From Escherichia phage fDHCT2, in the sequence record OR427838.1: a stretch of DNA of 64,000 nucleotides. One strand, given 5' to 3'. The position numbers and the translations under genes were made by a program. Numbering within the stretch: the stretch's first letter is position 1; each line of letters starts with the position of its first letter. The notes under the pieces were generated by a model, which worked only from the letters and a program-made list of their open reading frames with translations, was not told the origin of the DNA and made no database searches. This document shows positions 32,451 to 60,822 of this stretch, one piece after another.

Positions 32451-33254
32451 TCACATATTATGTATAAGCACTTCAGTCTGGAATGACACACCTTTTGATA
32501 CTTTTTGATATCTAGTTTCAAAATATTCAATTTTGAAATTGTTAGAAAGGGCCCAATCTTTTAGAATGTTATTATCAATATCATCTGATAGATTATTAGT
32601 GATAATAAATTTAGACTTTGATCGTTTAATTTTATCTAATAATTCTAATTCATCCTTTTCTTCCCACCCCGAATATTTAAATTTAGTAGAAAGATATGGT
32701 GGATCGATAAATAAGTTCCTGTTTTCAAAATCTAAATCTCTGAATGATTTATTTGAAAAACTTAGCAGATGTTGTCGATTTTTAAAAGCGGCGAATTTAT
32801 CCTGTTGCGATTTATTAAAAGAAGTTCTAGAGTATTTAGCCCTATCCGCAAAAGAAGCTATATACTTATCATCTTTAGAAAATTTTAGCATTGAGCTGAA
32901 TGCAAATAAATGTAGAACATACAAATACAACCCGTTTTTGGTTTTATCGTATTCCTTTGCCAGAGAGTAAAACGGTTTAGGGTCCACATCATTTAAACCG
33001 AAATCATCAATAATTTGGACAACGTCATTCATTGTTGAAGTTTTCATCGCGTTGTACATATTGATGACATGATAATTAATATCATTACACTCAACTCGCC
33101 GCCCACAATTCATAGAAAATCCAAGCCCACCACAAAAGGCATCTAAAACTATGGAGTCATCAAACCCCGTCACGAATTTATTAATAAAATCCATATATTT
33201 GTATTTTGAACCCGGGTAGGTTATCGCTGAATAATATTTCATCATATTTGCCAT
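32451..33254 (-). CDS. dam: Dam-like DNA N6-adenine methyltransferase
   Basis: 267 aa; motif I LDAFCGGLG, motif IV DPPY, Dam-family blocks YPGSKY and FNKSQ; recalled similarity to T4/E. coli Dam; AT-rich gene. Confidence 0.85.
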   Translation of the reverse strand: MANMMKYYSAITYPGSKYKYMDFINKFVTGFDDSIVLDAFCGGLGFSMNCGRRVECNDINYHVINMYNAMKTSTMNDVVQIIDDFGLNDVDPKPFYSLAKEYDKTKNGLYLYVLHLFAFSSMLKFSKDDKYIASFADRAKYSRTSFNKSQQDKFAAFKNRQHLLSFSNKSFRDLDFENRNLFIDPPYLSTKFKYSGWEEKDELELLDKIKRSKSKFIITNNLSDDIDNNILKDWALSNNFKIEYFETRYQKVSKGVSFQTEVLIHNM

Positions 33255-35608: not shown

Positions 35609-35974
35609 TGGACTGATATTTATAGGTCTTCTAATGAGAACGTATCTTTGAAAAGTTTGTTAACAACCAGGGCTATCACATCCCCATGACAGTCCTTAGG
35701 TTTACAGGTACACGCTATTCGCATACCTCTAAGGGTTTCAAGGTGTTCTCTTTTAATTTCACCTGATTTTATTTTAGCAATAAAGTATTCTTTAAAGTTC
35801 TTGATGTTTTCCTCACGAGTCCCATCTTTAAATGGATTACCCCACATAGTTCCACGTTGGATGTTTACATCAAAATCTTCTTTATACTTGTTAACAACTC
35901 TACAGACTCTCATTATAGCACCAAATTCAGTCCGACCATAATAACCAAAAACAGAGTACAGATTATTTGAATTT

Positions 35975-37658
<1,684 letters not shown>

Positions 37659-47996: not shown

Positions 47997-50900
47997 ATGG
48001 CTACTTTAAAATCGATACAATTTAAAAGAAGTAAAACACCAGGAGCCAAGCCTACTGCAGCTCAGTTAGATGAAGGCGAACTGGCTATTAACTTGCGTGA
48101 CCGCACTATTTTTACCAAGTCAGACCAAGGACAGATTATTGATTTAGGTTTTGCTAAAGGTGGTACTGTCGACGGCGATGTGACTATTAATGGAACTTTA
48201 CGCATTAACGGTCCATTAAACAATTTTGGAAACTTTTCTACAAGCGGGTCGATTACAGCGGGCACTAGTATTTCGGGCCAAACTTTTAGAGCGTTGCAAG
48301 GCTCGTTTTATGCAAGGGCACCAAACGACGCATCGAATGCCCATTTATGGCTTGAAAATGCCGATGGTGTTGAACGGGGTGTTATATATGCTCGGCCTCA
48401 AACTACAACCGCTGGTGAAATACGTCTTAGAGTTAGACAAGGAACCGGAAGCACTATTAATAGTGAATTCTATTTCCGTTCTATAAACGGCGGTGAATTT
48501 CAAGCCAACCGTATTTTAGCATCAGATTCGTTAGTAACTAAACGCATTGCAGCTGATACAGTTATCCACGGTGGCAAAGCCTTTGGTGTATATGATACGG
48601 ATTCATTAGTTAATTATGTATATCCAGGCACCGGCGAAACAAATGGTGTAAACTATCTTCGTAAAGTTCGTGCTAAATCCGGCGGCACTATGTGGCATGA
48701 ACTTTGCACTGCCCAACTAGGCCAAGCCGATGAAATGTCTTGGTGGACAGGTAATACCCCACAGTCAAAACAGTATGGTATTCGTAACGATGGCCGAATG
48801 GCTGGCCGTAATAGCCTTGCATTAGGTACATTCACTACAGATTTCCCGTCTAGCGATTATGGTAACGTCGGTGTAATGGGTGATAAGTATCTTGTTCTCG
48901 GTGACACTGTAACTGGTCTGAAATATATTAAACAATATGTTTATGATTTAGTTGGTGGGGGTTATTCAGTTGCTTCTATTACTCCTGATAGTTTCCGTAG
49001 TACTCGTAAAGGTTTATTTGGACGTTCAGAAGACCAAGGCGCTACATGGATTATGCCAGGCACGAATGCTGCATTTTTATCAGCCCAAACTCAGGCTGAC
49101 GGGAATACAGCTGGTGATGGTCAGACACATATTGGTTATAACTCTGGTGGAAAAATGTCACACTATTTCCGCGGTAGAGGTCAAACCAATATTAACACCC
49201 AAGAAGGTATGGAACTTAACCCAGGTATTCTTAAACTAGTAACCGGTGCAAATAATGTAATGTTTTATGCTGATGGTGGTATTACATCCACTAAGCAGCT
49301 TTCAATTTATAATGGTGTTTATCTTGCAGCTAATAACTCAACCGCAGGTTTGACTTTTTCGGCAACTACCACTATTGATGGCACCAAACAAATTCTTTGG
49401 GAAGGTGGTACTCGAGCAGGCCAGAATAAGAGTTATGTAACTGTTAAAGCATGGGGTAATTCATTTAACGCCACTGGCGATAAATATCGTGAAACTGTAT
49501 TTGAAGTTAGTGACGGACAAGGATACCATTTTTATTCTCAACGTGGTGCGCCTACAGGTGACGAAACTATCGGCCCTGTATTAATGCAAGTTTCAGGTTC
49601 TTTAAATGCAAGAGGAACATTAAACGCCGGTGCCAATCTTTATGTGGGAGGATTGAGTACACATGAAGGTGCTGTGACCATGAATAATGGGCTTAATTTA
49701 ACTGGTGGGGCTTCAATTAACGGACAAGTTAAAATGGGTGGTACCGCTGATGCATTAAGAATTTGGAATGCCGAATATGGTATGATTTTCCGACGTTCGG
49801 AATCCGGTTCTTCTTCTTCATTCCATCTTATTCCTACCCTCCAGAATGCTGGCGAAAACGGTGGAATAAGTGACCTTCGCCCGCTTTCCATTAATTTGGC
49901 TAATGGCACGGTTCTAATGGGTAATAAAAGTGCTGGGTATGGTCCACTTTTCACAGTCGACAACGTAAGTAAATTTGTTCGGACCGACTGTAGACTGCGC
50001 GTTAATATGGATTCCGATGCCATTGTAATAAATGCTTCATCCCAGGCGTCATCTAACTTTATCCAGGGACGTAAAGCAGATGTTACAAAATGGTATCTCG
50101 GTATTGGCGACGGCGGCAACGTTGTTCGTTTACATAACTATACCTACTCCCACGGTATTGCATTAAACTCTGACACTGTTGATATAACCAAGGCACTTAA
50201 AATTGGTTCCGATGTTCGTATTGGTCCTGACGGTAATATTACAGGCAGCACTGCATTAGAAAACTTTAAAAACCTGAACACAACGTTAGACCGTAAAGTT
50301 AACACAGGCGGGTGGTCGGGTGGTGCTACTACAGGTTGGTATAAATTTGCTACTGTAGAAATGCCACAATCGACAGGTACAGCATCCTTTAAAATATCAG
50401 GTGGGTCTGGGTTTAATTTTAAAAGTTATGGTCAGGCTTCAATAGCCGAAATAGTCCTTAGAACCGGCAATAATAACCCTAAAGGCCTTAATGCTACGCT
50501 GTGGAATAGAACTTATGAAGCCATTTCCCAGATTGCTTCGGTTAATACAAGCGAAGATATCTATGATATTTACGTTTACATTGGTGGGTATTCTAATTCT
50601 TTGGTGGTAGAATATACCTGCAGCAGCAATAGTAAAGTAACCGTAGTGGGTATTAATAGCGGTGTCCAGCCTTTGGTAGAAACATTACCTGAAGGTCATG
50701 TTGTAGGTAAATCTGTAAGAATGCTGAACAACCTTGACGGAATGTTTGCTGCCGGCGAATCAGATATTGTTACACGTGGTGAATACGTCGCTAATAACAA
50801 AAAAGGTATGCGTATTAAATCTAGTGGTAATGATATAGATTCTAATGCCGCTTTAATTAGAAACGATGGCGGAAGTTTTTATATTTTATTTACGGATAAA

Positions 50901-59072: not shown

Positions 59073-59333
59073 TCAAAACACCACCTCTTTAATTTCCATA
59101 AACCCATCATTCAGTGCATGGCGGAGTTCATAATGGATATCTATACCATCGACATTATCTAATTTACCGTCGATAAGTTTTTGTAAATCTTTTTTTGACG
59201 CTATCAAAGGACGAAGAAATCTACAATTAGAAAGGGATAATTCCGTAATAACATCTTCACCTGAGGCATCGTACATTGCGGCAACAACTTTACCTGTAAC
59301 TTTGTGTTTAGCGTAATATAATTTGATATTCAC
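59073..59333 (-). CDS. Hypothetical protein (86 aa), paralog of 59330-59593
   Basis: MNIKLYYAKHKVTGKVVAA.. aligns with adjacent MKFKFYYIKHKVTGEFIAF..; ATGA overlap. Confidence 0.55.
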   Translation of the reverse strand: MNIKLYYAKHKVTGKVVAAMYDASGEDVITELSLSNCRFLRPLIASKKDLQKLIDGKLDNVDGIDIHYELRHALNDGFMEIKEVVF

Positions 59334-59593
59334 AATTCCACCTCAATGATTTCAAGTTGATTTTCTTTGATAGCTTTCTTGATACAATTATTCACAATAT
59401 TATCCCAAGAATCGTTTAGCTCGCCCTTCGCCATACGTTGAAGATGCTCTTTTGTGGACAAATAAGGCTGGTCTGAATCCCATCTAGATAAGAACAATGA
59501 AGTAAAAGTATCACCTTGGTTATTGGATGAAGTTGTAAATGCAATAAACTCCCCAGTAACTTTATGCTTAATATAATAAAATTTAAATTTCAT
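59330..59593 (-). CDS. Hypothetical protein (87 aa), paralog of 59073-59333
   Basis: SD GGAGAAACAAA, early promoter upstream; tandem duplicate. Confidence 0.55.
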   Translation of the reverse strand: MKFKFYYIKHKVTGEFIAFTTSSNNQGDTFTSLFLSRWDSDQPYLSTKEHLQRMAKGELNDSWDNIVNNCIKKAIKENQLEIIEVEL

Positions 59594-59628
59594 TTTGTTT
59601 CTCCAGTTTGGTAACTCAGTATGGAATC

Positions 59629-59658
59629 ATTATACATAGACTCCATACTGATGTACAC
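59629..59658 (-). promoter_or_regulatory. T4-type early promoter (minus) with -10 inside a 10-bp inverted repeat
   Basis: GTGTAC-18 bp-TATAAT; arms tcagtatgga (59616-59625) and tccatactga (59642-59651) flank the -10. Confidence 0.5.
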
Positions 59659-59668
59659 TACTTTTTAA

Positions 59669-59928
59669 TTAATTGTGCATTTGTTCTTTAACTTCTTTAT
59701 ATGCACCAACTGCATTCACGACCCCAGTAAAATCTGCTGTTCCGCGATAGAGATAGAAAGCAATTTCAGTCAGGTGATAGACTTCAAATTCTGAAAGATA
59801 AACGATAACGTCATAATATGCAACTTGACCCTGGACTTCGTTGAATGCTACATCAAAAATTTCATGGGTCGGAAAATTGATGCTTGAATAAGAATTTGTT
59901 TGATGTTTTGAGTAGTAACTTGTTCCAT
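59669..59928 (-). pseudogene. Frameshift-interrupted ORF (26 codons from ATG 59928, then about 65 further open codons in the -1 frame)
   Basis: ATG 59928 with SD GAGGA opens MEQVTTQNIKQILIQASIFRPMKFLM-stop; the -1 frame continues open (..HEIFDVAFNEVQGQVAYYDVIVYLSEFEVYHLTEIAFYLYRGTADFTGVVNAVGAYKEVKEQMHN) to a stop near 59669 without its own start codon. Confidence 0.3.
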
Positions 59929-59975
59929 GATAATGTCCTCATTTGTTGGTGTAAGGACATTATTACATGGTTGGT

Positions 59976-60569
59976 TCAGCTTGTAAACCGGTGATAGGGA
60001 AATTTTTCTTCTGAACAAGAACGGAGGTACCAACCATCCCCTTGTGACTTCTGCACAAAACCAGACTCAGGAACGAAAGCCCCAGGTCCAGCAAGGAATT
60101 TTGGTTTAAATCTATAGCCTTTGAGAGTCTCTTTTACATCGAACATAATCATAAGGTCAGCAAGCTTGTGTTGCATAAAAGGACCAAGATTGACCCCGTA
60201 ACCATGCGGATAATCACCCTGGTGACCAGTATGCACGGATATCCATTTGGAACCAGACTGATGAGTCTTGACTTCAATTCTTACGCCTTCCTTCGAAACT
60301 ACATCAAATGCAAAGGAATAAGGATTATCGTAATCTTCATCGCCACCACATAAAAAACCGGAGGTCCATTTAGCAATAGCTTGTTCAGCCATTGTAGCCA
60401 CCATACATCTTTGCATGACTTGCTCACGGTCCTGACCAGGGTCTTTACGCAATGAATACCTGGCAGTGTCTACAATCTTTTGCAGGGATTCGGGTGTTAA
60501 GTCTTCCTTTGTATAAAGAAAGGAGGGCATCTTTTTCAGATGCTCCCATGTTTTACTCTTCTGAATCAT
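59976..60569 (-). CDS. Hypothetical protein (197 aa); positional candidate for endonuclease IV (denB)
   Basis: ORF with SD GAGGTAAAAG; lies between ndd-side genes and rIIB where T4 carries denB; no motif-level confirmation. Confidence 0.5.
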   Translation of the reverse strand: MIQKSKTWEHLKKMPSFLYTKEDLTPESLQKIVDTARYSLRKDPGQDREQVMQRCMVATMAEQAIAKWTSGFLCGGDEDYDNPYSFAFDVVSKEGVRIEVKTHQSGSKWISVHTGHQGDYPHGYGVNLGPFMQHKLADLMIMFDVKETLKGYRFKPKFLAGPGAFVPESGFVQKSQGDGWYLRSCSEEKFPYHRFTS

Positions 60570-60822
60570 CTTTTACCTCATCGATACCGACGATTCCCCG
60601 GATATGAAGCTCGCCATAGTACAAACGGTCATTATCATCAAATGTATCAGAATCCGGGTCAGGGAATTCCCCAACAACTACTTCATCACATTCCAACCAG
60701 CCATAGTGAACATCACCTTCATGCTTGATGAGCTTACCGCAGTAAACTATTCCTGCATAATGGTGACCCCGGAGATTTGAAACTTTGATGCCACGGTCTG
60801 ACACATTGAAATGCTTAATCAT
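60553..60822 (-). CDS. Hypothetical acidic protein (89 aa)
   Basis: ORF with SD GGTGAATAAATT. Confidence 0.5.
   Translation of the reverse strand: MIKHFNVSDRGIKVSNLRGHHYAGIVYCGKLIKHEGDVHYGWLECDEVVVGEFPDPDSDTFDDNDRLYYGELHIRGIVGIDEVKDDSEE

Follow-up and report, generated by a model that had tools for sequence, protein, structure and literature searches.

The 64,000-nucleotide stretch of Escherichia phage fDHCT2 DNA analysed here (record OR427838.1; hereafter the window) lacks 16 nucleotides of an early gene that is conserved, as a single open reading frame, in related phages. The preferred reading, held at a probability of roughly 0.78, is that the deletion is real and that the gene has been recently inactivated. 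The window, as judged from its sequence, is that of a T4-like myovirus (a coliphage), and the appropriate annotation of the locus is a disrupted SP18 gp282 / phrog_17571 gene, neither a gene for a 26-aa peptide nor a recoding site. The case is an ordinary one of recent gene disruption or, with lower probability, of a gap introduced by assembly; an event of this kind is already known, and its importance extends little beyond annotation.

On the minus strand, an ATG at 59928-59926, preceded with a 7-nt spacer by the SD sequence GAGGA (59940-59936), opens an ORF of 26 codons (MEQVTTQNIKQILIQASIFRPMKFLM) that ends at TAG 59850-59848. The -1 frame of this strand is open for 89 codons (59938-59672, followed by TAA 59671-59669); its translation includes ..INFPTHEIFDVAFNEVQGQVAYYDVIVYLSEFEVYHLTEIAFYLYRGTADFTGVVNAVGAYKEVKEQMHN and ..INFPTHEIFDVAFNEV...KEQMHN. 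A preliminary description of this DNA had reported the arrangement, with the -1 frame open beyond the 26 codons, and inspection of the ORFs bears it out; the protein sequence that it quoted for the -1 frame matches the translation exactly. It had also stated that the second frame has no start of its own, and the 89 codons indeed contain no ATG, GTG or TTG apart from codon 73 (GTG) and codon 86 (ATG). The 3' part thus has no usable start codon, and its independent expression is rejected. The further statement that so long an open stretch is unlikely by chance holds as well: with stops at 6.0% of trinucleotides in the window (G+C content 39.7%), 89 open codons in a row have p ~0.004 at a given position, and homology identifies the -1 frame as real coding sequence. 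Features of the locus are collected in the table.

Table. Features of the disrupted locus and of its upstream region (window coordinates).
Feature	Position	Strand	Basis
Disrupted copy (pseudogene) of a 91-aa early gene, phrog_17571	59669..59928	-	DNA alignment with intact relatives
Residual 5' ORF, 26 codons plus TAG	59848..59928	-	ORF scan and alignment
Deletion junction, 16 nt absent	59880..59883	-	Alignments with DCP80, CJ20 and SP18, then with 14 relatives
Ancestral-frame 3' remnant, 70 codons (I22-N91) plus TAA	59669..59881	-	Alignment
17-bp RNA hairpin enclosing the SD GAGGA (59936-59940) and AUG	59925..59970	-	Folding, -18.8 kcal/mol, z -4.67
Early-promoter-like site TTTACA-17 nt-(TG)TAATAAT, overlapping the denB end	59959..59987	-	10/12 consensus matches plus TG

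The window copy retains 260 nt of a gene that measures 276 nt in relatives. Where these read CAAG-CACTCAAAAACAACAA-CATCAATTTTCC, the window reads CAAG-CATCAATTTTCC (in shorter form, CAAG[CACTCAAAAACAACAA]CATCAA against CAAG|CATCAA), and the missing 16 nt (CACTCAAAAACAACAA) are the only length difference between the window and 14 relatives; outside the gap, DNA identity across the gene region is 90-94%, and along the gene itself 90-93%. The deletion lies within an A/C-rich low-complexity tract, CAAAAACAACAACA, and is flanked by a 2-nt repeat (CA/CA microhomology), so that the exact breakpoint is ambiguous by 2 nt. Because 16 is 15+1, the ancestral codons beyond the gap lie in the -1 frame with respect to the start codon, and the deletion alone explains the interrupted layout.

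The codons lost, L17-N21, fall within the motif A-L-x-N-N-N-I; this does not vary, even when the homologue P0016, at 54% identity, is included. Residues 1-16 of the residual ORF (MEQVTTQNIKQILIQA) are ancestral and identical to those of phage MN01, and residues 17-26 (SIFRPMKFLM) are out-of-frame read-through. The 3' remnant is identical to CJ20 and TH44 at 70/70 amino acids, and is now untranslatable by normal initiation. Peptides of the two halves are, for example, MEQVTTQNIK at the N-terminus and, among the C-terminal 70 residues, GTADFTGVVNAVGAYK. The frame change had been placed in the preliminary description at the T-rich stretch CCCATGAAATTTTTGATGTAG (59848-59868), which is not where it lies. 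The break is at the deletion junction, and the T-rich stretch AAATTTTTGATGTAG, 30 nt further on, only supplies the first stop codon encountered in the shifted reading. A startless open frame beside a T-rich stretch can thus mimic programmed frameshifting while the true lesion lies elsewhere.

All of the phage records that carry the locus (34/34) have one uninterrupted gene of 276 nt and 91 aa immediately after denB. The phages belong to Gaprivervirus or are unclassified (e.g., SP18, VR7, CJ20, MN01 and DCP80), and in Gaprivervirus the gene 3' of denB is labelled "hypothetical protein" (SP18_gp282, VR7ORF288c, MN01_00218). Blastn matches in these records span 338-347 nt of the subject for 322-331 nt of the query, so all 34 contain the extra 16 nt, and tblastn with the intact protein recovers the same 34 records, each over residues 1-91 in one piece. 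A protein cluster at 90% identity has 69 members; the 15 listed are intact, with lengths of 89-121 aa, and LKNNN is present in every sequence retrieved among them. An intact relative matches phrog_17571 with an E-value of 2.6e-61 over profile positions 1-91 of 91. The window locus has DNA homology over the full length of the gene and the same position directly downstream of denB, and in place of a single ORF of ~91 codons it has a stop after 26 codons with the rest in the -1 frame; it is a disrupted allele of phrog_17571 and not a functional member of the family. The record for DCP80 (PQ671644.1; 140,978 bp, short for the genus) carries the locus twice, at 35754-36100 and 48338-48613 on opposite strands, and has overlapping duplicate CDS annotations, which hints that this record is misassembled or rearranged.

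The deletion is peculiar to the window. A 21-mer across the junction, TTATYCAAGCATCAATTTTCC, has no match in IMG/VR or in JGI metagenome contigs. Two matches in genome_contigs, one in an archaeal MAG and one in an uncultured bacterial MAG, are not regarded as the same deletion and are taken as chance, the 21-mer being AT-rich and the MAGs unrelated. Homologues of the gene in IMG/VR come from the VR20, VR25 and VR26 genomes only, and none was found in metagenome contigs. A search of 5.8 billion proteins returned one cluster, and an HMMER scan of 1.84 billion representatives yielded one true relative, P0016, which lies on another T4-like contig, in the rIIB-denB region and one gene further downstream of denB; two other entries from the scan, P0017 and P0018, are repeat or low-complexity proteins and are regarded as spurious. 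Inactivation of a gene was among the options first put forward for this DNA, and these results support it strongly, every homologue being a single 91-aa ORF and the 16-nt deletion being unique to the window. Conservation of the 26-aa peptide alone, which would have told against a broken gene, is not what is seen, as both halves are conserved and form one contiguous frame in relatives.

Pooled over 14 intact homologues, pS is 0.142 and pN is 0.013 (pN/pS 0.09), and 29 of the 39 variable columns are third codon positions; the low ratio and the third-position bias show that the gene is genuine and subject to purifying selection. Only one substitution is private to the window copy: CCA to CCG at gene position 75, synonymous when read in the ancestral frame. 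MN01 has the same two N-terminal Gln residues. With one private substitution the lesion is evolutionarily very young, so that survival of the open -1 frame needs no special cause; the same scarcity of changes leaves no statistical power for relaxed selection after the deletion.

The sequence of events may be pictured as follows. A denB block with the 91-aa early gene would have resided in a T4-like coliphage, and 16 nt would then have been lost between CA dinucleotides, probably by replication slippage or illegitimate recombination at the microhomology. Loss of L17-N21 together with the shift of frame would leave a peptide of 26 aa, 16 of them native and 10 out-of-frame, and function has presumably been lost with them. 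The 70 remaining codons would persist in the -1 frame for want of time to decay. If the deletion is real, the phage is a natural knockout of a conserved early gene and could be compared for phenotype with intact relatives, MN01 among them.

The most serious alternative, though an unlikely one, is a sequencing or assembly artefact, in which the true phage has the intact 276-nt gene and the gap arose by consensus calling in the A/C tract. The repetitive, low-complexity nature of that tract is what such an error would favor, and the pristine state of the rest of the gene, with its one private substitution, is also in keeping with it, as is the absence of the junction from every other sequence (IMG/VR, JGI metagenome contigs). 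The promoter-like site, hairpin, SD and start codon are likewise all intact, which fits a very recent event too. However, platform errors are typically homopolymer indels of 1-2 nt, whereas the loss here is a clean one of 16 nt bounded by microhomology, the mark of slippage or illegitimate recombination and not of base-calling error. Nor is there another frame break relative to Dhakavirus phage IME341 across ~48 kb of the window (15.9-64 kb). In that comparison of 76 IME341 CDSs, 10 had no counterpart and 66 were matched, and 64 of the 66 are in a single frame over at least 94% of their length, which speaks against a generally error-prone window sequence; of the remaining two, rIIA is truncated by the end of the window and the other is a divergent protein. 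The suggestion of a sequencing indel survives in part, as an artefact of lesser likelihood, but not in the form proposed, a homopolymer-type indel at 59845-59860. The deletion is probably present in virion DNA.

Genuine deletion might also have been adaptive, for example as a way past a host defence that senses the protein, or in the course of laboratory growth on one particular host, and this is considered quite improbable. The gene lies in the plastic rIIB-denB-ndd region, the content of which varies among close T4-like phages (PMC4122927), and the block appears to be newly imported into a Dhakavirus-like backbone that normally lacks the gene. Against adaptive loss, the gene is intact in 34/34 records and under purifying selection, and searches give the protein no function. 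It is likewise very doubtful that LKNNN was knocked out under selection, the protein being harmful in this background or a defence trigger, or that unconventional recoding makes a variant protein.

The background of the locus is mosaic in composition. The last 20 kb of the window are ~90-92% identical to the Dhakavirus phages IME341, CLB_P2 and IME08, and the 1 kb around the broken gene is 92-94% identical to DCP80, CJ20, 212, SP18, VR7 and MN01. In IME341, the nearest relative of the backbone, blastn finds no counterpart of window positions 59332-60593, and an 88-aa gene comes immediately after a denB of 158 aa; the window block, 94% identical to Gaprivervirus phages, holds the broken gene together with a long denB of 197 aa and an 87-aa gene. 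An 89-aa gene between denB.1 and denB (60577-60822, minus strand) is 69.5% identical to its IME341 counterpart, 83% of which it covers in the alignment, and the adjoining genes are 90-99% identical to IME341; the low identity is a further mark of local mosaicism, here at the border of the imported block. At 59073-59593 (minus strand) are tandem paralogous genes of 87 aa (MKFKFYYIKHKVTGEF..) and 86 aa (MNIKLYYAKHKVTGKV..), where IME341 has one copy only; the 87-aa paralogue, the first of the two, has no match in Pfam. Elsewhere in the window, a D12-class N6-adenine DNA methyltransferase of 267 aa (32451-33254, minus strand; PF02086, E 9.8e-20) is encoded between the nrdA and nrdB homologues, which in IME341 are separated by a gap of only 24 nt, and it looks like an inserted gene.

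As to the ancestral protein, the sole Pfam match at E<=1 is RBD (E 0.14), at 12.6 bits and thus below the 25.7-bit cut-off; NCBIfam has no match at E<=1, PHROGs matches are only to families without assigned function, and a PDB sequence search gave no match. An AlphaFold2 model from a shallow alignment (pLDDT 67.6, pTM 0.60) has three helices and a small hairpin. With this model, of moderate confidence, Foldseek found nothing better than E 2.4 in the PDB, and in BFVD only the phrog_17571 family itself. Individual records carry more specific labels. The EAWsc9 homologue (PQ341120.1, 363-638) is annotated as a "MafI family immunity protein", which no NCBIfam or Pfam, PDB sequence or fold match supports, and the VR7 copy as "similar to ... 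putative HNH nuclease", which is unsupported by Pfam, NCBIfam, the PDB sequence search and the fold search.

The upstream hairpin is intact in the window, and all of its pairs are kept across 15 sequences (14 relatives and the window), among which there are no compensatory changes to prove it functional. The putative early promoter is recognized only as a match to the T4-early-type consensus; its sequence is nearly invariant in relatives, and its -10 element falls within the 5' arm of the hairpin. Transcripts that start at the promoter-like site would drop the 5' arm and expose the SD, and read-through from denB would hide it, a layout that suggests promoter-dependent unmasking of the ribosome-binding site. 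Composites of a promoter and a stem-loop (PeSLs) occur in hyperplastic regions of T4-like phages, with the stem-loop upstream of the promoter (PMC4122927). The site upstream of the broken gene resembles PeSLs in having promoter and stem-loop together, and differs from them in that the -10 element is inside the hairpin arm.

Least probable of all is programmed -1 frameshifting, or other recoding, at the T-rich AAATTTTTG to give a functional fusion of ~86 aa. In its favor, no stop interrupts the -1 frame anywhere along the 26-codon ORF, and a relaxed N NNY YYZ pattern (A TTT TTG) lies two codons ahead of the TAG. Scanning the ORF by script, however, gave relaxed patterns only and no zero-frame slippery heptamer of the form X XXY YYZ. 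The 83 nt downstream (59770-59852) have a folding energy of -10.0 kcal/mol, less stable than the mean of -13.0 for shuffled controls (z +1.03). The two-frame layout occurs in 0/34 phage records and in no listed cluster member, and the frame break is fully accounted for by the deletion, ~30 nt upstream of the T-rich stretch. The fusion would, moreover, lack LKNNN and carry SIFRPMKF in place of the invariant LKNNNINFPTHEI segment. Translational frameshifting, the remaining option of the preliminary description, is therefore set aside, since a slippery heptamer and a stimulatory structure are both missing and relatives do not share the layout. Bypassing of the gene 60 type was also considered and rejected: the take-off codon before the TAG would be ATG, and no matching landing codon restores the frame. 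The ancestral frame has a single ATG, at codon 86 of 89, so that a hop from Met26 could not rescue the protein.

Among known systems, the closest to the window copy is the phrog_17571 family, with which it shares the place downstream of denB, the upstream hairpin and SD and, in translation, the N-terminal 16 aa (of MN01) and the C-terminal 70 codons (of CJ20/TH44); it differs in its missing 16 nt and in yielding only the 26-aa peptide by normal translation. Programmed -1 frameshifting is exemplified by E. coli dnaX (A AAA AAG) and by the G/GT tail-chaperone genes of lambda-like phages. The window resembles such genes in its overlapping frames, the second of them without a start, and in the T/A-rich sequence before the zero-frame stop. 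Unlike them, it has no heptamer, no structure and no conserved layout, and its homologues are single ORFs. T4 gene 60, expressed by translational bypassing, is likewise from a T4-type phage and has an ORF that stops while coding continues downstream; the window differs from it in that there is no take-off and landing pair, the interruption is a deletion and not an insertion, and the arrangement is not conserved.

The preferred reading, recent inactivation by a small deletion, has its parallel elsewhere. Spontaneous frameshift and deletion mutations in non-essential regions of T4 are familiar from the classical genetics of the rII to ndd interval. A search of the literature for microhomology deletions in T4 found nothing specific. 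Genomes of T4-like phages contain hyperplastic regions that are rich in indels (PMC4122927, PMC2839356). With the rII-ndd mutations and the hyperplastic regions the present case has in common a small deletion, a non-essential early gene and a plastic region flanked by promoter and stem-loop; it differs from the events of hyperplastic regions in being an intragenic 16-nt deletion at a microhomology, rather than excision of a cassette from PeSL to PeSL.
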